Below are positions 2,788 through 56,129 of a stretch of DNA of 64,000 nt, piece after piece; positions within the stretch are counted from its first letter, which is position 1, and every line of letters starts with the position of its first letter. Both the position numbers and the translations under genes were made by a program. This DNA is from an uncultured Leptolinea sp. (lineage in GTDB: Bacteria > Chloroflexota > Anaerolineae > Anaerolineales > Anaerolineaceae). The notes beneath the pieces are model-generated. The model was given only the letters and a program-made list of their open reading frames with translations. It was not told the DNA's origin and did no database searches. The stretch is taken from NCBI GenBank assembly GCA_964420995.1, contig CAYQUX010000019.1:16323-80322 (forward strand), written 5' to 3'.

Positions 2788-2802
2788 GATTTTCCTAATG
2801 AT

Positions 2803-2837: not shown

Positions 2838-2929
2838 CACGCGTAAATATGTTGTATAGTTGATAAAATGGCTCGACGGTCATTTTTATTTTTACAGAAA
2901 TCTTTACGAAAGATTCAAGGATGGGCTGC

Positions 2930-28312: not shown

Positions 28313-28318
28313 TCATTT

Positions 28319-29788: not shown

Positions 29789-29823
29789 AATCTGACAGCA
29801 GATCAACAGCGCAGGAAAATTAA

Positions 29824-31170: not shown

Positions 31171-31199
31171 CGAAACAACTTTATTAAAAGGAAGATAGC

Positions 31200-32801: not shown

Positions 32802-32824
32802 CAACCATACATCAGGAGGATAAA

Positions 32825-35098: not shown

Positions 35099-35114
35099 TA
35101 AAAGAGGGGATGGA

Positions 35115-35537: not shown

Positions 35538-35566
35538 GGCTTCCAAAATTTGTCTAGTCCTGACTG

Positions 35567-35603
35567 CTTCCCCATAGGTTTGTCACTATGGGGAAGTACT
35601 TTT
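35567..35603 (+). terminator. Rho-independent terminator closing the 22.2-35.5 kb operon
   Basis: CTTCCCCATAG-loop-CTATGGGGAAG followed by TACTTTTGT. Confidence 0.5.
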
Positions 35604-35701
35604 GTCACTACTATTCATTATGTAAAATACATGGTGGTAAATGGTATTAAAATAGTATTAGATTCAAAAACACTCAATCCCGTGACTTAAGGCAGGCAAC
35701 T

Positions 35702-37906
35702 GTGGGGAATTTTAACGAAAACGACATAGTTCTTGATAACTACCGGATTGAGCGGAGTATCGGTCAGGGGGCTTTTGGGGAAGTCTATCTGGCGACGGAT
35801 ACCGGACTGAATGGCAAGCGTGCCATCAAAGTGCTGCTGCGCGATGATATTGGTGTGGGCAGTTCGGATTACAACGATTACCGCAACCGTTTCCGCCTGG
35901 AAGCCCAGTTGATGGAATGGTTCAACAATCCACATATCATCCGGGTGTACAACTTCCTGGAAAAGGACAATGTACTTTATTTGATCATGGAGTATGCCGG
36001 AGGCGGCAGCCTGAAACATCGCATGGATCAGGCAAAGAAGGACAGCAGTGTCCTTTCGATAGACGAATCCGTCAAGATCGCCCTGAATATCGCAGAAGGG
36101 CTGTCAGCCCTGCATGCCAAGGATGTCATCCACCGCGACCTGAAACCTTCCAACATCCTATTTGACGCGGAAGGCAACGCCAAGGTAGCGGATCTGGGTC
36201 TGGCGCAGGTTCCCGGCGGACCCAGCCTGCGCTCGCAATTGAGTATCCCGGTTCCCCACCCGGGCACACCGGCATACATGAGCCCCGAGCACGCCAACAG
36301 CTCCAACTACCTTACCCCGGCTTCTGATATCTACTCCCTCGGGTTGATTCTGTTCGAGATGATTACCGGGCGAAATTTCAAGACATTACGGCCAGGTACA
36401 CGGTTAAGTGGGATTATGCCCTCGGCGCCCGGGTGGCTGGATGGTCTGGTATCCCGCATGCTGTCTGAGAATATAAAAGACCGCCCCTGGGACGGCACGG
36501 AAACAGCCGAATTATTACGCGAAGGGTTGGTGAAGCTGGACAAGGCCCAGGCAGAAAAACAAAAAACAGCGGATACCGTGAATGTTGCTGATGATTCGGA
36601 AATGCGTAAGAAGGCGGAGGAGGCTGAACGAGCCCACCGAAAAGAAGAGATCAGGCAACTGGAAGCACAGTGCAAGGTAGCCATTCAAAACCAGGATTGG
36701 AACGCAGCCAATCGTGTGATCAAAACATTGAAGGGGATGGGGAATGATGGCCAATCTGCGGCAGAACTTTGCCAGGCCGATCTGGATAACAGCAGGAAAA
36801 AGACCAGGTCATCGGATTCCGTCTGGAAAAAATTTAGGTGGTTGGGAATTCTTGCTGTTACACTGATTATATTAACAATTATTATAGTAAATTGGCCAGC
36901 TCAACCGGTAATACCAACGGCGGTGCCAGTGTCAGAGGTTCCGGCTGCCCCTATTGCTACTGTCGAATATCATGAACCTACTCTTGAACCTGTTGCCCCT
37001 GCTGCCGCTGCTCCTGACCCCAAAGAAAGTAAGAAATTCACGTATCAAGACATGACCATGTGTTTCCCACAAATGGGGGCGGAAAGTTCCTGGCGGGAAG
37101 CCAACACGGCATCTTTTAAAGAGACAGCAGCCAAGCTGGGTGTTGGTTTGATCTTTTCGGACGCGCAGCAAAAGCAGGAAAATCAGATAGCTGCCATGCG
37201 AGCCTGCATCGCCCAGGGCGTGAGCGTCATCGCGTTGCCGCCGATAGTCCAGGATGGTTGGGAATCAGTGTTACAGGAAGCCAAAGACGCGGCAATACCT
37301 GTGATCATCATTGACCGCGCTGTATCTGCAGATCCGTCTCTCTTTGCTGCCCATATTGGCTCTGACATGGTAATTGAGGGGGAAAAGGCTGGCTCTGAGA
37401 TGAACAAACTGCTTCCCAACGGCGGAAAAATTGTTGAATTGAGAGGCACCGATGGCTCAGGTGCTGCTGTTGGTCGCGCAAATGGCTTTAGAAATACTCT
37501 CAATTCAAATATTCAGATGATTGACACACAGACAGCCAATTTCAATCGAACTGAAAGCAAACCTGCCATGGCAGCAATGCTAAAAAAGTATGGGAAATCC
37601 ATAAATGGATTGTTTTCCCATAACGATGATATGACCATGGGTGCCATTGCCGCGCTTAGAGCAGCCGGTTTCAAACCCGGGGATGTTAAGATCGTTTCTG
37701 TTGACGGAAACAAAGAGGCATTTCAGGCTTTGATGGACGGTTGGATTTCGGCAGAAGTGGAATGCAGTCCCATGATAGGACCACAGGCCATGGAAACCGC
37801 TCTGAAGGTTCTCAATGGCGAGCCGGTGGATCAGTATATTTTGACTAATGAAGGTGTTTTTTACCCTGATCAGGCAAGAGGATTGATTTCCACCCGGCAA
37901 TATTAG
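35702..37906 (+). CDS. Ser/Thr kinase – coiled coil – TM – extracellular PBP type I (LacI/ribose-binding-like) sugar-binding sensor domain
   Basis: GTG start (MGNFNEND...). Kinase motifs with DLG. The C-terminal 300 aa are a periplasmic-binding-protein type I fold (VIIIDRAV ... SHNDDMTMGAIAALRAAG ... VSVDGNKEA). Confidence 0.85.
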   Translation: MGNFNENDIVLDNYRIERSIGQGAFGEVYLATDTGLNGKRAIKVLLRDDIGVGSSDYNDYRNRFRLEAQLMEWFNNPHIIRVYNFLEKDNVLYLIMEYAGGGSLKHRMDQAKKDSSVLSIDESVKIALNIAEGLSALHAKDVIHRDLKPSNILFDAEGNAKVADLGLAQVPGGPSLRSQLSIPVPHPGTPAYMSPEHANSSNYLTPASDIYSLGLILFEMITGRNFKTLRPGTRLSGIMPSAPGWLDGLVSRMLSENIKDRPWDGTETAELLREGLVKLDKAQAEKQKTADTVNVADDSEMRKKAEEAERAHRKEEIRQLEAQCKVAIQNQDWNAANRVIKTLKGMGNDGQSAAELCQADLDNSRKKTRSSDSVWKKFRWLGILAVTLIILTIIIVNWPAQPVIPTAVPVSEVPAAPIATVEYHEPTLEPVAPAAAAPDPKESKKFTYQDMTMCFPQMGAESSWREANTASFKETAAKLGVGLIFSDAQQKQENQIAAMRACIAQGVSVIALPPIVQDGWESVLQEAKDAAIPVIIIDRAVSADPSLFAAHIGSDMVIEGEKAGSEMNKLLPNGGKIVELRGTDGSGAAVGRANGFRNTLNSNIQMIDTQTANFNRTESKPAMAAMLKKYGKSINGLFSHNDDMTMGAIAALRAAGFKPGDVKIVSVDGNKEAFQALMDGWISAEVECSPMIGPQAMETALKVLNGEPVDQYILTNEGVFYPDQARGLISTRQY

Positions 37907-38030
37907 CGATTGACGCTTGGAGTAATCTTCAATTGGTGTTGGTTATTTGAACCATCCTGAATTCCCAACACGTTTTTTGGATAAATATGTACTAAACTGA
38001 ATCAAATATCAAATCCGGCAGGGAGAAAAT

Positions 38031-40313
38031 ATGGGAAAGTTCAATGAAAAAGACATCATACTGGAAAATTGCCGGATCGAAAAAAGCATTGGGCAGGGCT
38101 CCTTTGGGGAAGTGTACCTGGCCACGAACACTGGAGTAAACAGCAAACGGGCTATCAAAGTGCTGCTGCATGATGAAATCGGTCTGGGCAGTACGGATTA
38201 TTTGCGCTACCAAAAACGCTTCCGTCAGGAATCTCAGTTGATGGCTTGGTTTAGCAATCCCCATCTGATCCGAGTGTACGACTTCCGGGAAGTGGATAAT
38301 ACACTTTACCTGGTTATGGAATATGCCGCCGGGGGAAGTCTCAGGCAGAAGATGGACCAGACCAAGGTAAACGGGCGGAATTTTTCTCCCGAAGAAACTG
38401 CCCGAATTGGAATAGATATTGCTGAAGGTTTGGCCGCATTGCACGCCAAAGATGTTATTCACCGTGACCTGAAGCCGTCCAATATTTTGTTTGATTCGGA
38501 TGGGCAGGCCATTGTGGCTGACCTCGGTCTGGCTCAAGTGCCAGGTGGACCAAGTTTGCGGTCAGAGTTGAGCAATCCCCCTCCGCATCCTGGCACACCG
38601 GCCTATATGAGTCCGGAACATTCCAATTCGAACATATATCTGACGCCTCCGTCGGATGTGTACGCGTTGGGGATAATCCTATTTGAAATGTTGACCGGAC
38701 GCAACCCCAAGATGCTACCTCCTGGAACGTCCTTACGGAGTCAACTCCCGACCGCGCCGGAATGGTTGGATGACCTTTTAACGCGTATGCTGGATAAAGA
38801 TCCAGAAAAACGCCCCTGGGACGGTGAAAAAACGGCTGTTGAATTGCGTAAGGGTTTGGCTGAAGAGATTGAAAAAAAGAAAAAACATGATGATGAGAAG
38901 AAAATTGACGGTCCCAACCAGGAAGATCGCCTGGAAAAGGAAATCCTTCTCTATGTAGAACAGGGCATGACCGCCATAAGATTGAAAGACTGGTCGGCTG
39001 CCCGACGGGTTATCGATGTATTGAGGGGATTGGGGGATAAAGGTGTAAACGCATCAAACCGAATAGAAGCGTTGATACAACCACCTAAACCACCACTACC
39101 ATGGAAAAAATACATGTGGGTTATGATTGCGGGGTTGGCAATGATCGCATTAATATTTGCAATCCAAAACCTTCCCTGGCCACACTCGAATCAAGCCACT
39201 CCAACTGTATCAACGGTAGAACCTACAATATCTCAACTCTCTACAGCCCCCATTATCAAACCGTCAGCAACGTCCAACAAGCCTGTCATAGCTCCATCTG
39301 GTCAGAAGATCAAAATCGGACTGTCATTTTCTGATTTCGCGACCGAACGCTGGACGAATGAGAACGCCCTGCTTCATACACTGCTCGAAGCCAAAGGGTA
39401 CGAAGTGATCACAACCGATGCCAAAGGTAATGCCAGTGTTCAAAATAGCCAGATTAATAATCTGGTTGCCAAAGGAGCAAAAGGCCTGATCATTTTGGCG
39501 CAGGATGGAGACGCCATTGTTCCAGCTGTGGAAAAAGCAGCCAATGCTGGTGTTACAGTAGTAGCTTATGACCGTTTGATCAAAACCTCAAAAATTGGCG
39601 CCTATGTTTCATTTAATAATGTTGAAGTTGGGAATCAACAGGCTGCAGGTATATTGAAAGCGCTGGATATTGACGGGGGTAAATGGACGAAACAAAACCC
39701 GGCAAAAATAGCCTTACTGGCGGGTAGTCCTGTCGATAATAACGCCGTTCTTTTCCGGAAAGGTCAGACGGATATTCTACAGAAATATATCGATTCCGGT
39801 CTTGTGAAAATTGTTGGCGACAAATGGGTTGAAAACTGGGACCCGGCCGATGCAACAAAACAGATGGAAAGCATAATCGCCAATCAGGGGAAAAAGATTG
39901 ATGGCGTGGTGGCTTCCAACGATGGTACCGGACTGGCAGCCCTTGAGGTCTTGAAATCCCATGGATTACGGGTACCTGTCTCCGGACAGGATGCCACGGC
40001 GGACGGGTGTAATTCTATCGTTAAGGGTGAATTGACAATCACGGTCTTTAAAGATTTCCGAAAATTGGCGCCTAATGCTGTCGAAGTTATGGACACATTG
40101 TTACAGGGAAAAGAACTGACTGCTCTAAAAGACTATTCCTTATCTGAATTGACATCAGGCAAAGTTACAACAGGCACTGTGAAATGCCTGTTTATTCCAG
40201 TTGTACCAGTAACAAAAGATAATATCTACGAAGTAATCGTTAAAAGCGGATTCCAATCATATGTAGATGTTTATCGTGATATTCCGAGCGGTCAGGCGCC
40301 CCCTGTGCCGTAG
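38031..40313 (+). CDS. Ser/Thr kinase – TM – extracellular ChvE/XylF-like PBP1 sugar-binding domain (paralog of the ABC binding protein at 1696..2787)
   Basis: Kinase motifs. The C-terminal domain aligns with the ABC binding protein over its full length (IGLSFSDFATERW / [12 protein letters not shown]; VSGQDATADGCNSIVKGELTITVFKD / [26 protein letters not shown]). Confidence 0.85.
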   Translation: MGKFNEKDIILENCRIEKSIGQGSFGEVYLATNTGVNSKRAIKVLLHDEIGLGSTDYLRYQKRFRQESQLMAWFSNPHLIRVYDFREVDNTLYLVMEYAAGGSLRQKMDQTKVNGRNFSPEETARIGIDIAEGLAALHAKDVIHRDLKPSNILFDSDGQAIVADLGLAQVPGGPSLRSELSNPPPHPGTPAYMSPEHSNSNIYLTPPSDVYALGIILFEMLTGRNPKMLPPGTSLRSQLPTAPEWLDDLLTRMLDKDPEKRPWDGEKTAVELRKGLAEEIEKKKKHDDEKKIDGPNQEDRLEKEILLYVEQGMTAIRLKDWSAARRVIDVLRGLGDKGVNASNRIEALIQPPKPPLPWKKYMWVMIAGLAMIALIFAIQNLPWPHSNQATPTVSTVEPTISQLSTAPIIKPSATSNKPVIAPSGQKIKIGLSFSDFATERWTNENALLHTLLEAKGYEVITTDAKGNASVQNSQINNLVAKGAKGLIILAQDGDAIVPAVEKAANAGVTVVAYDRLIKTSKIGAYVSFNNVEVGNQQAAGILKALDIDGGKWTKQNPAKIALLAGSPVDNNAVLFRKGQTDILQKYIDSGLVKIVGDKWVENWDPADATKQMESIIANQGKKIDGVVASNDGTGLAALEVLKSHGLRVPVSGQDATADGCNSIVKGELTITVFKDFRKLAPNAVEVMDTLLQGKELTALKDYSLSELTSGKVTTGTVKCLFIPVVPVTKDNIYEVIVKSGFQSYVDVYRDIPSGQAPPVP

Positions 40314-40398
40314 ACTTGTTTATGGTTTCTATGATGTCTACGGGATACCTATGAAGAAAAGCTTCTTAAGATAAACCAGAGATATTGACCTTCCCGGC

Positions 40399-42177
40399 AT
40401 GAGAAACAAGGACAACATTATGGAGACAAAATCATTTGGCAAGTACGAATTACTGGAGAAACTCGGCACCGGCGCGACCGGGGAGGTCTACCACGCGCGG
40501 GATACCCAGCTCGGCCGGGATGTTGCCCTGAAATTTTTCAAACCTGCACTGGTTTCCGACCCGGATTCCTTCCAACGCTTCATGCTCGAGGCGCGGTCAT
40601 CCGCCAGCCTTTTTCATAGCAATATCGCCACCGTGTTTGATATGGGGGAAGTGGAAGGGCGTTACTTCCTTGCCATGCAATATATTGACGGCAGATCGCT
40701 GGACGACATCCTCAAATCAGATGGACCTCTCACAGTGGATGAGACAGTCCGAATGGCAAAGCAGATTGCATCCGCGTTGGACTATGCCCACCAGCAGGGT
40801 TTTCTGCACCGGGATGTTAAACCGGGGAACATCCTGCAGGATAAAAAAGGGGATTTCTTCCTCACGGACTTTGGCCTGGCCAAAGCCATGATGTCGACCG
40901 GCCTGACAAGTCACACGGGCGCCGTACTCGGCACACCACCGTATATCCCCCCCGAGATCTGGCTGGGTGAAGCGGCTTCTCCGGCGTCTGACCAGTACGC
41001 GCTGGCCTGTGTAGTTTATGAATGCCTGTCTGGAAAGCTGCTCTTTCCGGGTGAAAACACGCCGGCCATTATGACCCGGCATGTGCTCAAGGGCCCAGAA
41101 GGATTGGAATCGTTGCCCGCGACCATTCCAGCGCATATACAAAAGGGTCTGGAACGGGCGCTTTCACGGAATTCGGATAAACGCTTCGTTTCAGCAACCG
41201 AATTTGCCTCCGCGCTTGATAAACATGTGGAAAAACCGCAGCCTGAAAAGCCAAAAAAGTCGGTTCTTCCATGGCTTGTTCCCGTTGGGTTGATCACTTT
41301 GGCGGTTCTGGGATATTCAATTTTTCGGTTATTGCCCGGGGAGGAACACCCGCCAATCAATCCATCACAAAAACCGACCGAAATGGCCATCAGTCCACAG
41401 ACCCAGATTCCTCAAGTAGAAAATACGATTTTTCCCACAAAAAATTCGCCCCTGAGTTCTCCCAGGATTAACAACACAAGGAAACGCGTTAATGATGGCA
41501 TGATGATGGTGTATGTCCCTGCCGGGGAATTCACCATGGGTAGTTATGCTGGAGATGAAGATGAGAAGCCTGAACATAAAGTCACACTGCCAGCCTACTG
41601 GATTGATCAAACCGAAGTAACCAATAAAATGTTTTTTATTTGCGTAAGCAATGGGAGGTGCCAGCCTCCCGTAAATATTCGTTCAAATACCCGTGATGGT
41701 TATTATAGCTATAACGCTTATGATAATTACCCAGTAATCAATATAAATTGGGAGCAGGCAAGAGTTTATTGCGACTGGGCGGGAGGGAGGTTGCCTGATG
41801 AATCGGAATGGGAAAAAGCAGCCAGAGGTGTGGACAGCCGGATTTACCCCTGGGGGAACCAGGATGCAGATATATCTCTGGCGAACTTCGTTATATCAGA
41901 TTTAGGTGATACATCTGTTGTTGGAAGCTATAACAGTGGTCAAAGTCCCTATGGTGTTTATGATATGGCCGGTAATGTTTGGGAATGGGTTTCCAGTTCT
42001 TATCTTCCTTACCCCGGGATTAATTATGTTGCTTTTCCATTTGATTCCAGGAAAAAAATCATCAGGGGTGGTTCATGGAATGATTATGATCATTATATTC
42101 GTACGACACATCGAAATGGAAAAGATCCGTCTGATTTTGGTCTAGACATAGGATTCAGATGTATGGTCCCCGAATAA
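40399..42177 (+). CDS. Ser/Thr kinase – TM – extracellular FGE-sulfatase (SUMF1/formylglycine-generating enzyme-like) domain
   Basis: Kinase motifs (HRDVKPGNIL, DFG). C-terminal FGE-sulfatase motifs (GEFTMGS..., RVYCDWAGGRLPDESEWEKAARG, GNVWEWVSS, RGGSW). Confidence 0.85.
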   Translation: MRNKDNIMETKSFGKYELLEKLGTGATGEVYHARDTQLGRDVALKFFKPALVSDPDSFQRFMLEARSSASLFHSNIATVFDMGEVEGRYFLAMQYIDGRSLDDILKSDGPLTVDETVRMAKQIASALDYAHQQGFLHRDVKPGNILQDKKGDFFLTDFGLAKAMMSTGLTSHTGAVLGTPPYIPPEIWLGEAASPASDQYALACVVYECLSGKLLFPGENTPAIMTRHVLKGPEGLESLPATIPAHIQKGLERALSRNSDKRFVSATEFASALDKHVEKPQPEKPKKSVLPWLVPVGLITLAVLGYSIFRLLPGEEHPPINPSQKPTEMAISPQTQIPQVENTIFPTKNSPLSSPRINNTRKRVNDGMMMVYVPAGEFTMGSYAGDEDEKPEHKVTLPAYWIDQTEVTNKMFFICVSNGRCQPPVNIRSNTRDGYYSYNAYDNYPVININWEQARVYCDWAGGRLPDESEWEKAARGVDSRIYPWGNQDADISLANFVISDLGDTSVVGSYNSGQSPYGVYDMAGNVWEWVSSSYLPYPGINYVAFPFDSRKKIIRGGSWNDYDHYIRTTHRNGKDPSDFGLDIGFRCMVPE

Positions 42178-42245
42178 AATCTTTTTGCCTTATTCCCATG
42201 GATAACATTCGTCTGAGTTATTAAAAATATAGCAAGGAATAAATC

Positions 42246-43874: not shown

Positions 43875-43983
43875 ACAAGTTGTCGCAAAGTCCCTCTTTT
43901 GTAAAGAAATGCGGTCGAATAACCACACTATTACCATGATAAAATTAATGAAATTGGTGATAATTCATGATGTGGAGTAACCT

Positions 43984-44860
43984 GTGGGGCGATTTGCTGA
44001 AAACGACATCATTCTAAAGAATTACCGTATCGAGAAAAGCATCGGTCAGGGTGCTTTTGGCGAAGTTTACCTGGCGACGCACCTCGGGTTGAACGGCAAG
44101 CGCGCCGTCAAGGTGCTGCTGCGCGACGAGATCGGCATGGGCAGTTCGGACTACGACGAATACCGCAACCGCTTCCGCCAGGAATCGCAGTTGATGGAGT
44201 GGTTCAAGCACCCCAATGTTGTCACCGTCTACGATTTTCAGGAGGAAGATGGCGTTCTCTTCCTGGTGATGGAATACGCGACGGGCGGCAACCTGCAGAA
44301 AAAGTTGGAAATCGCGCGGCGTGAGAATGAGCGCTTTACGGTTGATGAAGTCGTGCGCGTGGGTATAGACATTGCGGAGGGGTTATCCGCGTTGCATGCC
44401 AAGGATGTGGTCCACCGCGACCTGAAGCCGTCGAACATATTGTTTGACGTGGACGGGCGCGCCAAGGTGGCTGACCTGGGACTGGCACAGGTGCCGGGCG
44501 GGGCGAGCATGCGCTCGCAGTTGAGCATTCCCAAGCCACACCCGGGCACGCCTGCCTACATGAGCCCCGAGCAGGAGATCGCCGGTTCTTACCTGCGGCC
44601 GGCATCGGATGTGTATGCGCTTGGATTGATCCTGTTTGAAATGCTGGCCGGACGGAGCTACAAGAATATCCGGCCGGGAACCCTGATAAAGTCACTGGCT
44701 CCGGGTGTGCCGGACTGGTTTGATGAGCTATTGCGTAGGATGCTGGCGGAGTCGCCTAAAGACAGGCCATGGGACGGCGCAGAGGCAGTCAATGAACTGC
44801 GTACCGGGCTGGCTGCCGGCGATGAAAAGATGCGGGAAGCCCGCGAGAAAGCGCGTTTGG
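43984..44860 (+). repeat. Copy 1 of an ~880-bp near-identical direct repeat (the kinase-domain coding region). Copies 2 and 3 are at 47034..47910 and 50889..51760.
   Basis: Long runs of identical nucleotides are visible by eye (e.g. 44171-44340 versus 47221-47390). The third copy is more diverged. Confidence 0.7.
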
Positions 44861-47016: not shown

Positions 47017-47033
47017 CAGATGAGAATCCTACT

Positions 47034-49721
47034 ATGAGCCGATTCACTGAAAATGACATTGTTCTGAAAAACTACCGCATCGAGAAAAGCATCGGTCAGG
47101 GTGCGTTTGGCGAGGTGTACCTGGCAACCCACCTCGGATTGAATGGGAAACGTGCAATCAAGGTGTTGTTGCGCGACGAGCTCGGCATGGGCAGTTCGGA
47201 CTATGACGAGTACCGCAACCGCTTCCGTCAGGAATCGCAGTTGATGGAGTGGTTCAAGCACCCCAATGTTGTCACCGTCTACGATTTTCAGGAGGAAGAT
47301 GGCGTTCTCTTCCTGGTGATGGAATACGCGACGGGCGGCAACCTGCAGAAAAAGTTGGAAATCGCGCGGCGTGAGAATGAGCGCTTTACGGTCGATGAAG
47401 TCGTGCGCGTGGGGATAGACATAGCCGAAGGACTGTCCGCGCTGCATGCCAAGGATGTGGTCCACCGCGACCTGAAACCGTCGAACATCCTGTTTGACGC
47501 GCAAGGCCGCGCCAAGGTGGCTGACCTGGGGCTGGCGCAGATACCGGGCGGGGCGAGCATGCGCTCGCAGTTGAGCATTCCCAAACCGCACCCCGGTACA
47601 CCGGCGTACATGAGCCCCGAGCAGGAGCTTGCCGGTTCCTACCTGCGGCCGTCATCCGATGTGTACGCGCTGGGTCTGGTGCTATTTGAATTGTTGACCG
47701 GACGGAGCTATAAGAATTTGAGACCGGGCACCCGGTTGAATGCACTGGTACCTTCATCACCAGATTGGCTGGACGATCAACTGGCCAGAATGCTGGCGAA
47801 AGAAGCCGATAATCGCCCATGGGATGGCGCGGAAACAGTTCAGGAACTGCGCAAAGGTTTGAAACTGGGTGATCTACAGATGCGAGAAGCGCGAGAAATA
47901 GCCCGGCAGGAAGAAGAGGAACGCGCCCAAATCGAATCTATGGAGAAAGCCCATCGGGAAGAAGAAGAACGCGACCGGCTGGCGGAACAAGAGAAAGCGC
48001 GCCTTGAAACAGAAGAACGTGCGAGGCGGGAAGAGGCAGAAAAAATACGCCATGAGGAAGAAGAACGGATCCGATTGGCGAATATGGAAAAGACCCGGCT
48101 GGAGTTGGAGGAACGCGCAAGAAAGCTGGCCGAAGCGAAATCAATCAGGGAACGAGAAATCAAGGACCTGGAAGAACAGGTTCGGATCGCTATTATTGCG
48201 GATGATAAAACTCAGGCAGAAAAAGCGCTGGTTGCTCTACGGAAATTGGGAGATGAGGGGCGAGCAATTGCCAGAAACCTGAGTTCGGAATATGGAACAA
48301 AAAACAATACTTCGAAAAAATATTGGTTGATAGGCTCGCTTTGCCTGTTTTTACTTGTATTGATAGGCATATTTTGGATCAATGCTAAGCCATCCGATTC
48401 ATTGGGCACATCAATGATTGTTGGTACACTTCAAAATTCACCAACACCAGTGACTAGTGTCCCAACAGAATTTCATGAGAGCAAAGTTTCATCCAGTCTT
48501 GAATTAGCTTTTTCTGGAAAATTCAAAGGTAGTACTGTTACTATTGCCGGTCCTTTTAGCGACAATGATGCCGTCAAATTTGATGAATCCCTCAAAAGTT
48601 TCGAAGATAAAACCGGAATTGACATTCAATACTTCGGTTCAAAAGATTTCGAAGCCTCCATCGGTAGTGCCATTGAAGGCAACAATCCCCCCGATATCGT
48701 CGATTTCCCTCAGCCGGGCCTCCTATCTTATTTCGCCCAGAAGGGCAAAGTCATTGACCTGGCCAATTTCATGGACATGAAGAAACTGCAAGCCAATTAC
48801 ATCCAGTCCTGGATCGATATGGGAACCATGGAAGGACCCAAGGGTCCGATTCTGGCTGGTATCTGGGGCCGAGTAAATGGCAAGAGCATTGTCTGGTATC
48901 CCAAAAAGGCCTTCGACGAAGCCGGTTATAACGTTCCGAAGACCTGGGACGAATTGATGAAATTGACCGATAAGATCAAGGCTGATGGCGATACCCCTTG
49001 GTGTGTCGGAATTGAATCCGGCGCAGCCACTGGTTGGGTTATGACAGATTGGATCGAGGAATTACTGTTACGCACCACCAGTCTGGAAAATTATGACAAA
49101 TGGGTGAAAGGTGAATTGAAATTCTCCTCCCCTGAAGTCAAGAATGCCGTCCAGAAAGTCTCTGACCTTTGGTTCACAGAAGGCAACGTTTACGGCGGCC
49201 GCAAATCCATTGCCACAACCGCATTTGGTGATACCCCCAAACCCATGTTCGAAAATCCTCCAAAGTGCTGGCTGCATAAACAAGGCAACTTTATTACAGC
49301 TTTCTTCCCAAATGAAGCCAAAGCCGGTGTGGATTTTGACTTCTTCTATCTGCCCGGAATCGATGAAAAATACGGGAAACCCGTTCTGGTGGCCGGCGAT
49401 ATCTATGCCATGTTCAATGACCGCCCTGAAGTTCGTGCCGTCATGGAATACTTCTCAACCGGTGCTTCTGTGGAAGGATGGGTGAAAGCCGGTGGTGCCA
49501 TTTCTCCGCACAAAGATTCCAAACTGGAATGGTACACCAATGATGTTGACCGTGGCATTGCCAAGATGATCCAAGATGCCACCTCTGTCCGTTTCGATGG
49601 CTCTGACCAAATGCCGGGTGCTGTAGGTGCTGGTTCATTTTGGAGAGAGATGACCTCCTATGTCAGCGGAAGCATTAATATGGATACTGCGGTTAAGAAA
49701 ATTGATGAGTCATGGCCGTAA
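47034..49721 (+). CDS. Ser/Thr kinase – coiled coil – TM – extracellular solute-binding protein family 1 (CUT1 sugar binding protein-like) domain
   Basis: ATG start 17 bp after the preceding kinase. The C-terminal 430 aa look like SBP_bac_1 (…DTPWCVGIESGAATGWVMTDWIEELLL…). Confidence 0.85.
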   Translation: MSRFTENDIVLKNYRIEKSIGQGAFGEVYLATHLGLNGKRAIKVLLRDELGMGSSDYDEYRNRFRQESQLMEWFKHPNVVTVYDFQEEDGVLFLVMEYATGGNLQKKLEIARRENERFTVDEVVRVGIDIAEGLSALHAKDVVHRDLKPSNILFDAQGRAKVADLGLAQIPGGASMRSQLSIPKPHPGTPAYMSPEQELAGSYLRPSSDVYALGLVLFELLTGRSYKNLRPGTRLNALVPSSPDWLDDQLARMLAKEADNRPWDGAETVQELRKGLKLGDLQMREAREIARQEEEERAQIESMEKAHREEEERDRLAEQEKARLETEERARREEAEKIRHEEEERIRLANMEKTRLELEERARKLAEAKSIREREIKDLEEQVRIAIIADDKTQAEKALVALRKLGDEGRAIARNLSSEYGTKNNTSKKYWLIGSLCLFLLVLIGIFWINAKPSDSLGTSMIVGTLQNSPTPVTSVPTEFHESKVSSSLELAFSGKFKGSTVTIAGPFSDNDAVKFDESLKSFEDKTGIDIQYFGSKDFEASIGSAIEGNNPPDIVDFPQPGLLSYFAQKGKVIDLANFMDMKKLQANYIQSWIDMGTMEGPKGPILAGIWGRVNGKSIVWYPKKAFDEAGYNVPKTWDELMKLTDKIKADGDTPWCVGIESGAATGWVMTDWIEELLLRTTSLENYDKWVKGELKFSSPEVKNAVQKVSDLWFTEGNVYGGRKSIATTAFGDTPKPMFENPPKCWLHKQGNFITAFFPNEAKAGVDFDFFYLPGIDEKYGKPVLVAGDIYAMFNDRPEVRAVMEYFSTGASVEGWVKAGGAISPHKDSKLEWYTNDVDRGIAKMIQDATSVRFDGSDQMPGAVGAGSFWREMTSYVSGSINMDTAVKKIDESWP

Positions 49722-49899
49722 AACTTTAGCTTATTGCCATCCATTAATACTACCTTTTTAAGTATTTATGATAATTATCATTGAATAATGTCATAATAAA
49801 AGGGAACCATATCGAAAAAAAGATTAGCATGCGGTGTTTGACGATATGTAGATGATCGAAATAGTCACCAGATGTTAAGAATTTTCCCTTTACTTGAAC

Positions 49900-50706
49900 C
49901 TAGGAAATGAGCTTCAAGTATTTCAAGATACTCACTGAGATCTTCTGCGCCTCAATCCCATTGGCGAATCCATCCGGATTGCTGGTCTCAAGGTTGGTAG
50001 CAAAGAAATAAACGTTGTCCTTCGTTTCCAGCCAGCCTACAAACCAACCCTGGTATTTATCTACCCTGACCACTGATCCGGTTTTTCCGCGCAGGGTGTA
50101 GGTATCCGTCTTTTCCTGGATGATCAGGTCTTTTACAATGGTCATGCTGCGTTCTGAGAAGGGCAGTTTACCCGTATACAATCGTTTCAGGAATTCAACC
50201 TGCTGATCGGCGGAAATTCGCAGACTGCCGTCCAACCAGAAGGAATCCAGGTTTCCAGAAATATCTTTATTCCCATAACCGACCGCATCCACATAATGCT
50301 GGATATTCTCTTTTCCCACCCGGCGGGCCAGTTCCTGAAAATACCAGACCACTGAATATTGAACGGCACTCTTCAGGGTATGATCCCGATTCCATTCGGG
50401 CACCTGGTAGTGCGTGCCATCCCATTGGATCACATAATTTTCGTCAGGGATCACCCCGGTTTCCAGGCCAATCATGGCATTCATGATCTTGAAAGTGGAG
50501 GCAGGCAGAAATCCTTCCGCGCAGCGTTCAGGGTTGTAGCGGATGTAATGGTTGGCCTTTTGATCGAAGAGGACAAAAGCGCTGTCCCGGCCATGAAAAA
50601 ATGTGCCCAGATCGGACCGGATTTCAGAAGTAGGTTCAACTGCTGTCCGAATGCAAGCACTTGTGGAAACTAAAATTATTAGGAGTATTTGAAAGTAAGG
50701 TTTCAT
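49900..50706 (-). CDS. Class D (OXA-type) β-lactamase with signal peptide
   Basis: All class D motifs are present: STFK (PASTFKI), SxV (SAV), YGN (GYGNKD), KTG (RGKTGS), WxxG (WFVGWLE). It is about 268 aa with an N-terminal signal, and has AT-rich flanks. Confidence 0.8.
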   Translation of the reverse strand: MKPYFQILLIILVSTSACIRTAVEPTSEIRSDLGTFFHGRDSAFVLFDQKANHYIRYNPERCAEGFLPASTFKIMNAMIGLETGVIPDENYVIQWDGTHYQVPEWNRDHTLKSAVQYSVVWYFQELARRVGKENIQHYVDAVGYGNKDISGNLDSFWLDGSLRISADQQVEFLKRLYTGKLPFSERSMTIVKDLIIQEKTDTYTLRGKTGSVVRVDKYQGWFVGWLETKDNVYFFATNLETSNPDGFANGIEAQKISVSILKYLKLIS

Positions 50707-50888
50707 TTTTCCCCAGTGTAATACTATCGATCATTCCACCGGAGTATACTGCCATTGAATAAAATAAAGAAAAACTGATTATGGCAGACCAATTAGTGTC
50801 TGAATATGATGATAAATTATTCAAAAAAATTTCCATATAACCATGATAAAATTATTATTATTAAATTCATCCCGGTAGGGAGCTTCTT

Positions 50889-53800
50889 GTGGGGCGATTC
50901 GCTGAAAATGACATTGTTCTAAAAAACTACCGGATCGATAAAAGTATAGGCACGGGCGCTTTTGGCGAGGTGTACCTGGCAACGCACCTGGAGTTGATTG
51001 GCAAGCGCGCCATCAAGGTGCTGCTGCGCGATGAGATCGGTATGGGCAGCTCGGATTATGACGAGTATCGCAACCGCTTCCGTCAGGAATCGCAGTTGAT
51101 GGAGTGGTTCAAGCACCCCAATGTGGTCACCGTCTATGATTTTCAGGAAGAAAACAACATCCTCTTCCTGGTGATGGAATACGCGGCAGGTGGAAATTTA
51201 CAGAAAAAGTTGGAAACCGCGCGACGTGAGAATGAGCGCTTTACGATTGATGAAGTGGTTCGTTTGGGGATTGACATCGCGGAAGGACTGTCCGCGCTGC
51301 ATGACAAAGATGTGATCCACCGCGACCTGAAGCCGTCAAACATATTGTTTGACGCGGAAGGGCATGCCAAGGTGGCTGACCTGGGGCTGGCGCAGATACC
51401 GGGTGGGGCGAGTATGCGCTCGCAATTGAGCATTCCCAAACCGCATCCGGGCACACCGGCCTACATGAGCCCCGAGCAGGAAACTGCCGGTTCATACCTG
51501 CGGCCATCATCGGATGTGTACGCGCTGGGTCTGGTGCTGTTTGAATTGCTGACTGGACGGAGTTATAAGAATTTGAGGCCGGGCACCCGGTTGAAAGCAT
51601 TGGTACCTTCATCACCAGATTGGCTGGACGATCAACTGGCCAGGATGTTGGCGAAAGAAGCCGATGATCGCCCATGGGACGGTTCAGAGGTTGCTAGTGA
51701 ATTGCGCGCCGGGCTGGAACTCGGTGATAAACAGGTACGGGAAGCGCGAGAAAAAGCCCGTCAGGAAGAAGATGAACGCGCCCGGATCGAAGCTCTGGAG
51801 AAAGTCCACCGTGAAGAGGAAGAACGAGCCCGATTGGCCGCGGATGAAAAAGTGCGCCTGGAAACAGAAGAACACACCCGTCGCGAGGCTGAAGAGAAGA
51901 TCAAGCGAGAGGAAGAAGAGCGCATCCGATTGGTGAATTTGGAAAAGACCCGGCTGGAGATGGAGGAACGCGCAAGAAAGCAGGCCGAAGCGAAATTTAT
52001 CAGGGAACGAGAAATCAAGGACCTGGAAGAACAGGTTCGGAATGCTATCCAAGTTGGAGATAAAACTCAGGCAGAAAAAGCACTGGCTAGTCTACGGAAA
52101 ATGGGAGATGAGGGGCAGGCAATTGCCAGAAACCTGAGTTTGGAATATGGAACCAAGAACAATACCTGGAAGAAATACTGGTGGGTAATTGTCGCTGGGA
52201 TTATCACCCTGGCGGTCATTATGATCATTTATTCGGGTAGTTTGGTGAATAACTCAAATGACGCAATGAAAGATGTGACTGATACTCCGGTCGAGAATAC
52301 GATACAAGCCACTTCTCCCAACCTTGCGACTTCAGTCGCGTCGGTTTCAAAAGCAACTGTGAAGAACCCTGACACCATCACCTTCATCACCGGTGCAGGT
52401 GAACCTGAGACTCTTGATCCCGCCTGGACCTATGAAACCGCAGGTTCCACAGTCGAATTGAATATATATGAAGGCTTGACCTTTTTCAAACGTGAAAAGA
52501 CGGATGAATTTATCCCGGCTTTGGCGACCGATTGGAAAACCAGCAAAGATGGCCTGACCTGGACTTTCAATATACGCAGGGATGTAAAATTCCACGCTGG
52601 CGGAACACTTGAACCCCATGATGTTGCCTACACTGCCCAGCGCGCGTTTCTTCAGGGCCGCACCGATGGCTGGCAGTGGATTCTCTACGAAGCCTTCTTT
52701 GGTCCGGATATGGCCATGGCAGGTATCAAAGATTTTGCTGTGGAATACATCAAACCAGCCAATGCGAGTGAAGCTCCGAAATTTGAAGATCTGAAAGCCG
52801 AAAGTTTGGTAAAAGTCTGCGAAGATATCAAGACCAGGATCGTGGCTGATGACGCCGCCGGTACTGTAACCTACAAATTCAACCAACCCGTTCCCTGGCT
52901 GCTCGCTCTGACATCACAGCAATACTTGGGTGGGATCCTTGATCAGGAATGGATGGCGAAAAATGGCGATTGGGATGGGGATTGCGCCACCTGGACTAAG
53001 TTAGCCGATCCAGCTGCCGAGAAAACCATTCTTTTCAATAAAGCCAACGGTACCGGTCCCTACAAACTGGATCACTGGACTCCCGGGGGCGAGATAGTTA
53101 TGACCGCCAATGAGAATTACTGGCGCAAAGAACCCATGTGGGAAGGCGGTCCCAGCGGTATAGCCAGCATCAAACGTGTTGTAATAAAGAATATTGACGA
53201 ATGGAATACCCGACTCTCCATGCTTAAATCCGGCGAGGCGGATGAGATATACACTCCCCCTCAGTACCGCAAAGAACTCGAACCATTAGCAAGACAGACA
53301 TGTGGAATCGATGAAAAGACCTGCAAAGATGACAAAGCCGATGGATACCTGACCTTCTACCGCAACCTCCCCATTGCTGCCATCACCCCTGCCCAGTTCA
53401 ACTGGCAAATCAATGTTGAGGATAGTAATCCGCATGTGGGTTCCGGAATTCTCGATGGCAAAGGTATTCCTGCCAAATTCTTCAGCGATATCCACATCCG
53501 CAAGGCTTTCTCCGCCTGCTTCAACTATGATGCTTTTATAGAAAGCGCTCTTGACGGGGAAGGCCATCAAGCCCAGGGACCAATTCCCCAGGGTATGATG
53601 GGTTACCTGAAAGATCAAGCTCCTATGAACAAATATGACCCGGTCAAATGCGCGGAAGAATTCAAACTTGCCGATCTTGATGGCGATGGCAAACCTGCCG
53701 GCAATGACAATAATGATGTCTGGAACACTGGCTTCATGATGCAGATCGCCTACAACGAAGGAAATGACACCCGCCGAATAGCATCTGAAATTCTGAAAAC

Positions 53801-54236
53801 TGGTGTGGAAACAGCCAATCCGAAATTCTCAATCCAGGTTCTCTCCATGCCCTGGCCTACTCTGCTTGAAACTCGACGACAGGGAAAGTTGCCTTTATAT
53901 GTTGGTGGTTGGGTGGAAGACTATCATGATCCGCATAATTGGGTAAATCCATTCCTTTACTCACAGGGTGCTTACAGTCGAATAGTTAATATGACAGATA
54001 CTTATAAGAAGAAATATGATGATCTTATTTTCCTGGGCGCAAAAGCGACCGGAAACACAGAGCGTACTCCAATCTATGAACAAATTCAGAAAGAATCACA
54101 GGAAGATGCTGTGGGTATCTGGATGTACCAGCCATTGGAAGGTTATCCCTTCCAGTCCTGGATCAATGGATTTTATTTCAATCCTGCCTACGGAAATCCG
54201 GAATATGGGTGGATTTATTCCTTGTCAAAGGGATAA
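50889..54236 (+). CDS. Ser/Thr kinase – coiled coil – TM – extracellular solute-binding protein family 5 (DppA/OppA-like) domain
   Basis: GTG start. SBP_bac_5 hallmarks (ITFITGAGEPETLDPAWTYETAGSTVELNIYEGL ... TWTFNIRRDVKFHAGG...). Confidence 0.85.
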   Translation: MGRFAENDIVLKNYRIDKSIGTGAFGEVYLATHLELIGKRAIKVLLRDEIGMGSSDYDEYRNRFRQESQLMEWFKHPNVVTVYDFQEENNILFLVMEYAAGGNLQKKLETARRENERFTIDEVVRLGIDIAEGLSALHDKDVIHRDLKPSNILFDAEGHAKVADLGLAQIPGGASMRSQLSIPKPHPGTPAYMSPEQETAGSYLRPSSDVYALGLVLFELLTGRSYKNLRPGTRLKALVPSSPDWLDDQLARMLAKEADDRPWDGSEVASELRAGLELGDKQVREAREKARQEEDERARIEALEKVHREEEERARLAADEKVRLETEEHTRREAEEKIKREEEERIRLVNLEKTRLEMEERARKQAEAKFIREREIKDLEEQVRNAIQVGDKTQAEKALASLRKMGDEGQAIARNLSLEYGTKNNTWKKYWWVIVAGIITLAVIMIIYSGSLVNNSNDAMKDVTDTPVENTIQATSPNLATSVASVSKATVKNPDTITFITGAGEPETLDPAWTYETAGSTVELNIYEGLTFFKREKTDEFIPALATDWKTSKDGLTWTFNIRRDVKFHAGGTLEPHDVAYTAQRAFLQGRTDGWQWILYEAFFGPDMAMAGIKDFAVEYIKPANASEAPKFEDLKAESLVKVCEDIKTRIVADDAAGTVTYKFNQPVPWLLALTSQQYLGGILDQEWMAKNGDWDGDCATWTKLADPAAEKTILFNKANGTGPYKLDHWTPGGEIVMTANENYWRKEPMWEGGPSGIASIKRVVIKNIDEWNTRLSMLKSGEADEIYTPPQYRKELEPLARQTCGIDEKTCKDDKADGYLTFYRNLPIAAITPAQFNWQINVEDSNPHVGSGILDGKGIPAKFFSDIHIRKAFSACFNYDAFIESALDGEGHQAQGPIPQGMMGYLKDQAPMNKYDPVKCAEEFKLADLDGDGKPAGNDNNDVWNTGFMMQIAYNEGNDTRRIASEILKTGVETANPKFSIQVLSMPWPTLLETRRQGKLPLYVGGWVEDYHDPHNWVNPFLYSQGAYSRIVNMTDTYKKKYDDLIFLGAKATGNTERTPIYEQIQKESQEDAVGIWMYQPLEGYPFQSWINGFYFNPAYGNPEYGWIYSLSKG

Positions 54237-55378: not shown

Positions 55379-55420
55379 TTTTCGCTCCTTCATATCCATC
55401 TATTAAAGAGATTTACTTCT

Positions 55421-56104: not shown

Positions 56105-56129
56105 TTGAACCTTTTTATTCTTTTCCATA

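Follow-up and report, generated by a model that had tools for sequence, protein, structure and literature searches.

Single-pass receptor Ser/Thr kinases of a Leptolinea-like Chloroflexi bacterium that carry complete solute-binding proteins as outside sensors in five genes

Introduction

Bacterial proteins that join a Ser/Thr kinase to a solute-binding protein (SBP) have been catalogued since 2005 (Krupa and Srinivasan, PMC1262709), and include an S. coelicolor kinase with an extracellular solute-binding protein of the Glu/Gln type and a Nostoc kinase with an ANF-receptor domain. Co-occurrence of SBP_bac_3 and Pkinase domains is also recorded in actinomycetes (PMC13293324). Literature searches found ligand-dependent kinase signalling demonstrated for no member of this class. 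Five array genes of the locus described here fall within it, each encoding an N-terminal kinase, one transmembrane (TM) helix and a C-terminal SBP in a single open reading frame. They share with the kinases of PMC1262709 the order of parts, N-terminal Hanks kinase, membrane span and SBP or Venus flytrap, which in both cases is predicted from sequence alone. The architecture class is thus already known, and four features set the present genes apart: SBPs of other and several classes (CUT2-type Peripla_BP_4, SBP_bac_1, SBP_bac_5, LysM plus PBP), the amplification of one kinase chassis in an array, a demonstrable recent capture of transport SBPs, and an ER/K spacer with a conserved juxtamembrane module.

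The PASTA receptor kinases PknB and Stk1 resemble these proteins in being single-pass, with a cytoplasmic kinase and an ectodomain that binds ligand. Their activation is presumed to proceed by ligand-dependent localisation or dimerisation leading to trans-autophosphorylation. PknB has been called a receptor kinase (PMC6069109). Unlike the PASTA kinases, the present family contains no PASTA domain (Pfam) and scores 175-203 bits against the NCBIfam model PknB_PASTA_kin (NF033483), whose cutoff is 450.

In the GlnH-GlnX-PknG system of mycobacteria and corynebacteria, extracellular Asp/Glu is sensed as a nutrient by an SBP, and an FHA protein becomes phosphorylated on Ser/Thr as the output (PMC6069109, PMC8050422); a 2021 review named it the sole characterised SBP-stimulated Ser/Thr kinase. 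The work is divided there among three separate proteins, namely an SBP that is a free lipoprotein, a membrane transducer with a four-helix bundle, and a kinase that is soluble, whereas here SBP and kinase occupy one polypeptide with a single TM helix. Recruitment of a transport-type fold for signalling is also seen in a Bacteroides hybrid two-component system with a periplasmic sugar-binding sensor (PDB 2x7x, which is among the PDB matches of the sensor search), and free SBPs act on VirA (in the case of ChvE) or on chemoreceptors (PMC8050422). One sensor of the present family, that of gene 38031, is related to ChvE and XylF, but in the Bacteroides, VirA and chemoreceptor cases the output is a histidine kinase or chemoreceptor and not a Hanks kinase. 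Venus kinase receptors (PMC4026697) and natriuretic-peptide receptors follow an analogous design, in which an extracellular PBP-like flytrap is linked by one TM helix to an intracellular kinase or kinase-like domain. In these eukaryotic receptors, which signal as dimers, flytraps of the ANF-receptor type are joined to tyrosine kinases or guanylate cyclases, and the homology shown here goes no further than the shared superfamilies.

The Gene Family and Its Surroundings

The window is the whole 64-kb stretch of DNA that was analysed. An earlier note, made from the same DNA, had claimed six open reading frames with a common N-terminal kinase; all are present, five on the + strand (35702, 38031, 43984, 47034, 50889) and one on the - strand (18312), and the N-terminal motif and Pkinase domain are common to 6/6 (Pfam 152-159 bits vs cutoff 31.7). 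Genes are named by the first coordinate given below.

18312-19826, - strand: 504 aa, the kinase subfamily's sixth member; TM aa 299-317 after a short linker; orphan ectodomain of 185 aa
35702-37906, + strand: receptor Ser/Thr kinase, 734 aa; kinase about aa 1-280, then charged linker and juxtamembrane module; TM aa 378-396 (nt 36833-36889); YtfQ/RbsB-like Peripla_BP_4 sensor aa 445-734 (nt 37034-37903)
38031-40313, + strand: receptor Ser/Thr kinase, 760 aa; TM aa 361-379 (nt 39111-39167); disordered tether aa 380-425; XylF/ChvE-like Peripla_BP_4 sensor aa 425-760 (nt 39303-40310)
40399-42177, + strand: receptor kinase of another lineage, FGE-sulfatase ectodomain (Pfam)
42246-43874, + strand: receptor kinase of another lineage, ectodomain without Pfam match
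43984-47016, + strand: receptor Ser/Thr kinase, 1010 aa; ER/K-rich helix of ~170 aa; TM aa 497-515 (nt 45472-45528); LysM aa 578-619 (nt 45715-45840); XylF-like Peripla_BP_4 aa 679-1010 (nt 46018-47013)
47034-49721, + strand: receptor Ser/Thr kinase, 895 aa, young chimera; chassis aa 1-431; unique TM and tether aa 431-485 (TM nt 48324-48380); complete mature SBP_bac_1 aa 486-895 (nt 48489-49718)
49900-50706, - strand: class D beta-lactamase/transpeptidase-like gene between 47034 and 50889 (Pfam Transpeptidase, E 4e-42)
50889-54236, + strand: receptor Ser/Thr kinase, 1115 aa, young chimera; chassis aa 1-431; unique TM and tether (TM nt 52185-52241); complete mature SBP_bac_5 aa 492-1115 (nt 52362-54233)

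The five + strand genes had been described as tandem, but the array is broken by two unrelated kinases and by the beta-lactamase-like gene, which lies outside the kinase family. The kinase domains of 40399 and 42246 are only 37-43% identical to those of the family. An FHA-domain gene is located at 62245-62913 of the window, and no phosphatase gene or proven substrate gene was found within the 64 kb.

Kinase Domain and Paralogue Divergence

All six genes encode one distinct Hanks-kinase subfamily (PF00069) in which the catalytic motifs are intact. The motifs GQGAFGEV, AIKVL, RFRQE, HRDLKPSN, DLG and SPE, which stand for the Gly-rich loop, beta3 Lys, alphaC Glu, HRDxKxxN, DFG and APE, are invariant within the family, according to an alignment with a PknB landmark sequence. 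DLG is the Leu variant of DFG, and this substitution, together with subfamily-specific insertions and one deletion in the alignment, distinguishes the family from PknB and Stk1. The kinases are assumed, from motif conservation alone, to be catalytically competent. The kinase domain of 18312 is 64-67% identical to those of the other members.

The kinase domains of 43984, 47034 and 50889 are the most alike, at 84-90% protein and 82-87% DNA identity. This trio had been called nearly identical at the nucleotide level and the expansion recent, and the first description does not hold while the second finds no support: dS among the three is 0.54-0.81, the other pairs are saturated, only a single run of 164 nt is exact, and 35702 and 38031 have counterparts of the same architecture in another genome (sensors 70-71% identical).

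44179-44342, + strand: exact 164-nt repeat, identical to 47229-47392, covering kinase codons ~66-120

Across codons 60-125, around this repeat, dS falls to 0.05, vs 0.6-1.3 in the flanks. The repeat is interpreted as a gene-conversion tract, an assembly effect being less likely. Omega of the kinase domain is 0.06-0.13; with values far below 1 in kinase and sensor alike, the receptors are under purifying selection.

Linker, Membrane Span and Topology

Each of the five array genes encodes exactly one strong hydrophobic helix preceded by K/R residues, so that a topology with the kinase inside and the SBP outside fits. Architecture, topology signals and SBP fold bear out the modular protein that had been proposed, in which one TM helix connects a Hanks kinase in the cytoplasm with an SBP outside it. 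The terms "one-component" and "periplasmic" that accompanied that proposal are loose; this is a single-polypeptide receptor kinase, and the free SBPs of this lineage are lipoproteins. Lipoprotein SBPs of this kind fit a monoderm envelope.

The charged linker between kinase and membrane had been taken for a coiled coil. Its best heptad a/d occupancy is just 0.16-0.25, which makes a canonical coiled coil unlikely, and the linker instead resembles a single ER/K helix that leads into a conserved juxtamembrane module. The spacer varies widely in length, from about 30 to 170 residues. In 43984 it is composed of 31% E, 20% R and 13% hydrophobic residues, has an i/i+4 salt-pair density of 0.38 and is encoded by tandemly repeated DNA.

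44878-45270, + strand: DNA tandem repeats with periods of 96 and 87 nt, coding the ER/K-rich helical spacer of 43984 (TRF)

The juxtamembrane module comprises ~45 residues with three predicted helices and WKKYWW at its end, and is kept both in this genome and in the related metagenome contig L081. Beyond the TM helix follows a disordered, Ser/Thr/Pro-rich tether.

Sensor Domains

Pfam annotation agrees with the sensor types proposed for the array: Peripla_BP_4 in 35702, 38031 and 43984, LysM in 43984, SBP_bac_1/8 in 47034 and SBP_bac_5 in 50889, with E values of 1e-15 to 1e-58. The SBP profiles are matched over nearly their full models (Peripla_BP_4 1e-44 to 1e-50, SBP_bac_1 3e-15, SBP_bac_5 1.5e-57). 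There are four sensor types and not five, because the sensors of 38031 and 43984 are the same SBP type (54% identical).

Sequence matches in the PDB include XylF, YtfQ and DppA. The sensor of 35702 matches YtfQ structures 6hbd/2vk2 at E about 1e-68 and scores 257 bits against NCBIfam YtfQ (cutoff 510); that of 38031 matches 3m9w at E 1e-55 and scores 270 bits against xylF TIGR02634 (cutoff 390). The sensor of 43984 reaches 237 bits against the same xylF cutoff of 390, and that of 50889 reaches 81 bits against DppA (cutoff 1005). None of the sensors reaches the NCBIfam equivalog cutoffs for XylF, ChvE, YtfQ or DppA/OppA, and ligand assignments are therefore guesses at the level of class. In the AlphaFold (AF2) model of 38031, helices span residues 297-346, the TM helix lies at 362-379, the tether has pLDDT 22-35 and the sensor pLDDT about 90. 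The two-lobe alpha/beta SBP fold, tested for 38031 only, was recovered by Foldseek as a match to the E. coli xylose-binding protein 3m9w (TM 0.91, rmsd 2.1 A). The C-terminal domain of 18312, which had been listed as of unknown fold, has no Pfam match and no homologues at E <= 1e-3.

Chimeric Origin of 47034 and 50889

From residue 1 to the TM helix, 47034 and 50889 are 79% identical in amino acid sequence, and their DNA is 85.6% identical over gene nt 7-1294. Past the TM helix, the two align with distinct free SBPs of ABC transporters from sister Leptolinea genomes, at 80-92% aa and 79-86% nt identity. The sensor of 47034 is 84-92% identical in protein and 81-86% in DNA to free SBPs of Leptolinea MAGs, with dS about 0.9-1.0, and these relatives are found in LacI-SBP-permease-permease-GH13 operons. 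The protein homology begins at the mature N-terminus of the free SBPs, and the DNA match ends at the stop codon. For 50889, the best 120 homologues of the sensor lack a kinase domain without exception, every one being a free SBP_bac_5 protein (612-711 aa long, 59-82% identical); they include an ABC SBP of L. tardivitalis (80%) and the protein P0121 (82%), which sits in an Opp-type operon.

In both chimeras, homology to the free SBPs sets in at the mature N-terminus or only a few residues away from it. The lipobox of the free relatives of the 50889 sensor is replaced in the fusion, and no signal peptide or lipobox is present at the fused SBP N-terminus, where kinase, linker, TM helix and tether have taken their place. 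Chassis and SBP are separated by ~180 nt of unique in-frame sequence, encoding the TM helix and tether, that matches neither parent. A duplicated kinase-linker module was thus joined to a copy of an ordinary transport SBP. The proposal of sensor swapping on a common kinase module now rests on alike chassis with different free-SBP relatives beyond the TM helix, which is stronger evidence than the earlier note had offered. Omega between sensors and free SBPs is 0.05-0.11, and among free orthologues 0.12-0.14. Full-length searches found no full-length counterpart of either fusion.

An Array in a Related Genome

In L081, 10 members of this kinase subfamily stand in tandem, and their sensors are PBP4, WD40, Peripla_BP_6/ANF, SBP_bac_1, LysM plus PBP4, or none; the array is thus conserved in a second genome. 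Comparison of kinase and sensor domains, which had been suggested as a way to reveal domain shuffling, groups the kinase domains by genome block and not by sensor type. The counterpart of 35702 in L081 (J422) has a sensor 70% identical, while the counterpart of 38031 (J2710) is 81% identical in the kinase and 71% in the sensor. Among the 150 proteins that best match 38031 in a library of 1.84 billion representatives, this kinase is paired with an XylF-like PBP in about four only.

Proposed Mechanism and Alternative Readings

The reading that we favour, and consider probable, is that these proteins are N-in single-pass receptor kinases, built from a common chassis and a captured SBP, in which ligand regulates phosphorylation. 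The parts run from Hanks kinase through ER/K spacer, juxtamembrane module, TM helix and disordered tether to a surface SBP. A new receptor would arise when a duplicated kinase-spacer-module chassis fuses with a copy of a transport SBP already resident in the cell. The signal peptide and lipobox of that SBP would give way to a TM helix and tether, and paralogous kinase domains would later trade sequence by gene conversion. As to ligand identity, ligand-dependent kinase regulation and substrates, we infer the following. A fused SBP would bind the same solute class as its free relative: for 47034 this is probably an oligosaccharide of alpha-glucan type, for 50889 a ligand of peptide type, and for 38031, 43984 and 35702 a monosaccharide, either pentose or hexose. 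Given the disorder of the tether, transmission across the membrane by a rigid piston movement is improbable. Ligand binding would more likely alter self-association or partner docking of the closed SBP. The changed association may then alter trans-autophosphorylation of the kinase and, through it, phosphorylation of cytoplasmic targets such as FHA-domain proteins. Against this reading stand the long disordered tether and the single TM helix, which offer no obvious route for allosteric coupling, the sensor scores below the equivalog cutoffs, and the failure to find a phosphatase or proven substrate gene in the window.

The fused SBP might instead still dock on cognate ABC permeases encoded elsewhere, with the TM helix replacing the lipid anchor, so that the kinase is brought to the loaded transporter, where it would report or regulate flux instead of working as a receptor on its own. 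The sensors of 47034 and 50889 have stayed close to transport SBPs, with purifying selection at least as strong, which is consistent with such coupling to transport, as is the resemblance of the fusion's flexible tether to the flexible A/P-rich tether of the free lipoproteins; disorder in the tether also speaks against direct conformational coupling. However, no ABC permease or ATPase gene adjoins any of the five receptor genes, and the sole ABC system in the window (1696-5631) has a ChvE-type SBP only 29-32% identical to the fused sensors. We regard this alternative as rather unlikely. A related proposal, also tentative and in our estimate unlikely, is that the chassis is an evolvable platform that repeatedly captures SBPs of the cell's own ABC importers, the docked SBP allowing the kinase to read transporter occupancy or flux. 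This would be a bacterial "transceptor" logic operating by Ser/Thr phosphorylation, in which the ER/K helix would determine how far the kinase can reach. Were this the case, the operon context of the free paralogue could predict the ligands of a whole group of bacterial Ser/Thr kinases.

The SBP folds could also have been exapted to bind envelope or cell-cell cues such as glycan fragments, and not nutrients, and to control filament growth or division as PASTA kinases do. A LysM domain precedes the PBP in 43984 and in the relatives J19844 and P0006, and WD40, FGE-sulfatase, Bmp and orphan ectodomains occur on the same kinase subfamily, which implies that nutrient sensing is no general property of the family. 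For the older sensors of 35702 and 38031, moreover, the nearest free SBPs found reach no more than about 56-59% identity. The young sensors, in contrast, show no faster protein evolution after fusion, which argues against a change of ligand, and we consider exaptation improbable.

Reliability of the Sequence

Short-read assemblies break at these very genes because the kinase regions contain exact repeats, 31 to 179 nt long, and the exact proteins of 47034 and 50889 have no record elsewhere, as would be the case if the fusions were chimeric misassemblies across repeats, or pseudogenes. This explanation is very improbable, given that every reading frame is intact (734-1115 codons), omega is far below 1, the signal peptide of the free SBP is precisely missing, the same architectures recur in a second genome, and the unique ~180 nt between chassis and SBP goes beyond what a misjoin would create.

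Independent k=31 Logan contigs end 30 nt into the 164-nt repeat, at 44208, and independent assemblies gave no confirmation of the joins in the repeated kinase region (~44208-44534, 47214-48186, 51069-52041). The assembler may have interchanged the first ~65 codons of these two genes, 43984 and 47034. The flanks, on the other hand, are reproduced by Logan contigs from independent runs, which are 100% identical to the window over 28031-44208 and 49511-51098. The exact protein of 35702 was found on 10 contigs and that of 38031 on 12, the Logan contigs again matching the window at 100%, and the 43984 protein is identical to the database protein P0001. Logan contig L172 confirms the 3' end of 47034 and the order of this end, the beta-lactamase-like gene and the 5' end of 50889 at 100% identity, in at least 20 samples.

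A Subfamily of Receptor-Like Kinases Within a Kinase Island

Ten genes with a Pkinase domain lie in the 16-54 kb part of the window, and six of the ten, named here by start coordinate like the other genes, constitute a single subfamily. The kinase genes of this island, and a further gene lying among them, are:

16076: Pkinase gene
18312, minus strand: subfamily kinase
28319: Pkinase gene with TPR
35702, plus strand: subfamily kinase with a YtfQ-like Peripla_BP_4 sensor (PDB 6hbd, E 1e-68)
38031, plus strand: subfamily kinase with a XylF/ChvE-like Peripla_BP_4 sensor (PDB 3m9w, E 1e-55)
40399: kinase of another lineage, with an FGE-sulfatase ectodomain
42246: kinase of another lineage
43984, plus strand: subfamily kinase with LysM and a XylF-like Peripla_BP_4 sensor (54% identity with the 38031 sensor)
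47034, plus strand: subfamily kinase with an SBP_bac_1/8 sensor (sugar-binding lipoprotein 3vxb, E 8e-12)
49900-50706, minus strand: class D beta-lactamase/transpeptidase-like gene, between receptor kinases 47034 and 50889
50889, plus strand: subfamily kinase with an SBP_bac_5 sensor (DppA-like, E 2e-21)

The kinase domains of the six members are 64-90% identical to one another but only 34-43% identical to those of 40399, 42246, and 16076, and the N-terminal motif by which an earlier note had defined the family is common to all six. In an alignment with PknB as landmark, the catalytic motifs are all present, with DLG replacing DFG, and a 4-residue insert after β3, an insert after αD, and an 11-residue C-lobe deletion are specific to the subfamily. 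NCBIfam matches to antiphage and lanthipeptide kinases score far under cutoff and were rejected as generic kinase-domain similarity. The genes from 35702 to 50889, previously described as five in tandem, are non-contiguous, since 40399, 42246, and the beta-lactamase-like gene intervene. Metagenomes scanned with the kinase alignment yielded just about six members of the subfamily, whose sensors were FGE-sulfatase domains or unknown, and no further fusions to a solute-binding protein (SBP). Database matches assign the contig to a Leptolinea-like Anaerolineae genome: three proteins of the window have identical NCBI-derived entries, and several of its parts have their nearest relatives in Leptolinea MAGs and L. 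tardivitalis. In window scans for promoters and terminators, the signal was no better than in shuffled sequence.

Domain Architecture and Sensors

Each array protein contains one hydrophobic helix (Kyte-Doolittle >2) preceded by Lys/Arg, which implies that the kinase is inside and the C-terminus outside. The transmembrane (TM) segment on which the membrane receptor reading depends is thus present in all five array proteins, and their C-terminal parts are full-length SBP domains according to Pfam. The SBP fold predicted for these domains was supported by AlphaFold2 and Foldseek, a fold test covering 38031 only. The 38031 model, built from a 10-sequence alignment (mean pLDDT 76), contains a two-lobe sensor (pLDDT ~90), a disordered tether (380-425), a TM helix, and helices at 297-346, and its sensor superimposes on the E. 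coli xylose-binding protein with a TM score of 0.91 and an rmsd of 2.1 Å. These parts add up to a predicted receptor kinase, with the kinase inside and the SBP outside.

The charged region that follows the kinase had been called a coiled coil but does not resemble a canonical one, with heptad a/d occupancy of 0.16-0.25 at best. It consists of 28-31% Glu and 18-20% Arg, with hydrophobic residues making up just 13-18%, and the density of opposite-charge i/i+4 pairs is 0.31-0.38; an ER/K single α-helix fits this region better. Spacer length varies across the family from ~30 to 170 residues, and the 43984 spacer is encoded by DNA tandem repeats with periods of 96 and 87 nt. An ER/K-type spacer that is repeat-encoded and variable in length is a possible tuning element. 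Between spacer and membrane lies a conserved module of ~45 residues (LE.QG..A....DW.aAr..i..Lk.lG.dG..AA, then a WKKYWW end), which the members carrying an SBP share both here and in a second genome; a Pfam search with it gave no match, even at E ≤ 1.

Because every sensor scores under the NCBIfam equivalog cutoff, only ligand class can be suggested. The 18312 ectodomain (aa 318-504) is an orphan sensor domain, which lacks a Pfam match and gave no homologues with E ≤ 1e-3 when 5.8 billion clusters were searched by word index. When 38031 was searched against 1.84 billion representative proteins, only ~4 of the best 150 matches joined this kinase to a XylF-like periplasmic binding protein (PBP), a combination that is rare, and the nearest free SBPs were 56-59% identical. 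Two "two-stretch" top matches of the representative search, P0241 and P0304, were rejected as kinase fusions, being actually tandem double PBPs. Some of the closest relatives of the XylF-like sensor (P0241, P0304, and P0249) are two-Peripla_BP_4 proteins and a kinase-free LysM+Peripla_BP_4 protein, and the LysM-PBP unit may also exist on its own. At 73-5631, the window also encodes a canonical free-standing sugar system, consisting of L-arabinose isomerase, a ChvE-equivalog SBP (541 bits vs a cutoff of 460), an ABC ATPase, and a permease. This free ChvE-type SBP (1696-2787) was ruled out as donor of the XylF-like fused sensors, to which it is just 29-32% identical.

Capture of Transport SBPs by 47034 and 50889

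Between residue 1 and the TM start, the 47034 and 50889 proteins have 79% identity (85.6% in DNA, over gene nt 7-1294); past that point they share nothing. Free SBPs of 442-443 aa from two Leptolinea MAGs have 84-86% identity (81-82% nt) with the 47034 sensor (aa 486-895), and that of a third, which is cut by a contig end, has 92% (85.6% nt). These free SBP genes lie in a cluster of the order LacI, SBP, permease, permease, GH13 alpha-amylase family. At the protein level, homology to the free SBP starts at its mature N-terminus; at the DNA level, the match extends as far as the stop codon. When 5.8 billion clusters were searched with the 50889 sensor, the best 120 homologues were without exception stand-alone SBP_bac_5 proteins (59-82% identity), none with a kinase; the best of them belongs to an Opp-type operon that also encodes two ATPases and two permeases, and an L. 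tardivitalis ABC SBP in this set is 80% identical. The free SBPs are lipoproteins whose lipobox and Ala/Pro tether have been swapped in the fusion for ~60 unique residues, comprising the TM and a Ser/Thr-rich tether, unlike either parent.

Both chimeras appear to be lineage-specific, because full-length searches gave no counterpart of either fusion. Synonymous divergence (dS) between the 47034 sensor and the free Leptolinea SBPs is 0.87-1.05, compared with 0.46-0.60 among free orthologues, and the two chimeras are not brand new. The corresponding omega values are 0.05-0.11 and 0.12-0.14; purifying selection is the same or stronger, which argues that binding function has been retained. SBP_bac_1 proteins of the type that 47034 captured are 70-76% identical between Anaerolineae and many Spirochaetes MAGs (locus L020 and other loci), an unusual cross-phylum conservation that suggests horizontal spread of this transporter.

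Possible Mode of Signaling

The solute class bound by a fused SBP would probably be that of the free relative. Since two of the sensors nearly equal SBPs of GH13 (alpha-glucan-type) or Opp-type operons, candidate ligands can be named and are testable on ectodomains. Ligand may change self-association or partner docking and so alter trans-autophosphorylation, a route favored over a rigid conformational relay given the disordered tether and the single TM helix. No PP2C phosphatase was found among the window ORFs scanned. A candidate kinase target is encoded near the end of the window:

62245-62913, minus strand: 222-aa protein whose C-terminal part is an FHA domain; it may read phospho-Thr or be a substrate of the kinases

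The main rival explanation keeps the tethered SBP in the service of an ABC transporter, with the kinase reading out or regulating transport. The near identity of fused sensors to transport SBPs and the resemblance of the tether to that of a lipoprotein lend it some weight; the array, however, has no adjoining ABC genes, and we regard a transport-coupled role as unlikely relative to that of a receptor.

Receptor Kinases in a Second Genome and the Age of the Family

A related array is present on a second metagenome contig:

L081, 1-22805 (JGI 3300048599): tandem array of ten kinases belonging to this subfamily

Their sensors are PBP4, PBP4, WD40, Peripla_BP_6/ANF-receptor, SBP_bac_1, PBP4, none (in three members), and LysM+PBP4, and two more subfamily members are located outside the array. 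The WD40 C-terminal domain comes after a predicted TM helix. The fusions in 38031 and 35702 are old, because L081 has counterparts with the same architecture (sensor 71% and kinase 81% identity for 38031; 70 and 69% for 35702). The SBP_bac_1 sensors of 47034 and of J10001, the L081 member bearing this domain, are without a BLAST match at E ≤ 1e-5 and were therefore considered independent captures rather than equivalents, as were the sensors of 50889 and P0017. The LysM-PBP sensors of the two genomes are just 27% identical. Kinase domains group by genome block, not by sensor type, which argues for repeated chassis duplication (of kinase, spacer, and module) with independent sensor acquisition, on which gene conversion appears to be overlaid.

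The three most similar kinase domains had been thought nearly identical and the expansion recent. Their DNA identity is 82-87%, with dS of 0.54-0.81, and every other kinase pair in the family is at or close to synonymous saturation. The kinase DNA of the trio contains a single exact tract of 164 nt (44179-44342 = 47229-47392), within which dS is 0.05, compared with 0.6-1.3 in the flanks, and several shorter patches of 90-96% identity. Tract and patches carry the apparent signature of gene conversion between paralogues, and it is to this process, not to a recent burst, that they point.

Reliability of the Sequence

Logan contigs (L167-L173), which are independent k=31 assemblies of several sequencing runs, match the window at 100% identity across 28031-44208 and 49511-51098. 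As k=31 predicts, they break off exactly 30 nt inside exact kinase-gene repeats (44208, 51098), and L172 and L173 begin at 49511 and 49768, which are extra assembly break points. This agreement confirms the flanks and the reality of the repeats; joins within the repeated kinase regions lie outside Logan coverage. Exact-protein look-ups gave no match for 47034, 50889, or P0001 (identical to 43984), likely because k=31 assemblies break within these genes. Chimeric misassembly of the fusions is very unlikely, because the TM and tether segments are unique and in frame, signal peptides are lost precisely, omega is far below 1, and the same architectures occur again in another genome.

Relation to Known Systems

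Identification of the stimuli of bacterial Ser/Thr kinases has been called an outstanding question (PMC6069109), and just one characterized SBP-stimulated kinase, a three-protein system, has been listed (PMC8050422). A Streptomyces coelicolor kinase with an extracellular SBP and a Nostoc kinase with an ANF-receptor were catalogued in 2005 (PMC1262709), and SBP_bac_3 co-occurs with Pkinase in actinomycetes (PMC13293324). The kinase-SBP architecture is therefore already known, and the locus adds no new principle; its design is analogous to that of eukaryotic Venus kinase receptors (PMC4026697). Literature searches turned up no account of a Chloroflexi locus in which an amplified chassis has captured transport SBPs. 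The locus is unusually clean and open to experiment because candidate ligands are readable from free paralogues, and it offers a clear natural example of receptor birth by chassis duplication, capture at the mature N-terminus of a binding domain, and partial homogenization by gene conversion.

Other Genes Around the Array

In the product of the beta-lactamase-like gene, a hydrophobic stretch at the N-terminus ends in Cys, and the motifs STFK, YGN, and KTG are present; the exact protein and its flanks were found again on a Logan contig seen in at least 20 samples. Two PQQ-type beta-propeller proteins, one with a zinc ribbon (19879-21897, 25583-28312), are interleaved with the kinases, and the region 14297-54236 also encodes an AAA ATPase (24219), an SPFH/Band-7 protein (31200), a double-zinc-ribbon protein (32825), an HTH_17 protein (22193), and a long coiled-coil membrane protein (14297). 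Just downstream of the array, on the minus strand (54377-57796), a zinc-type alcohol dehydrogenase gene paired with a DUF4386 membrane-protein gene occurs twice in succession, which looks like a local tandem duplication.
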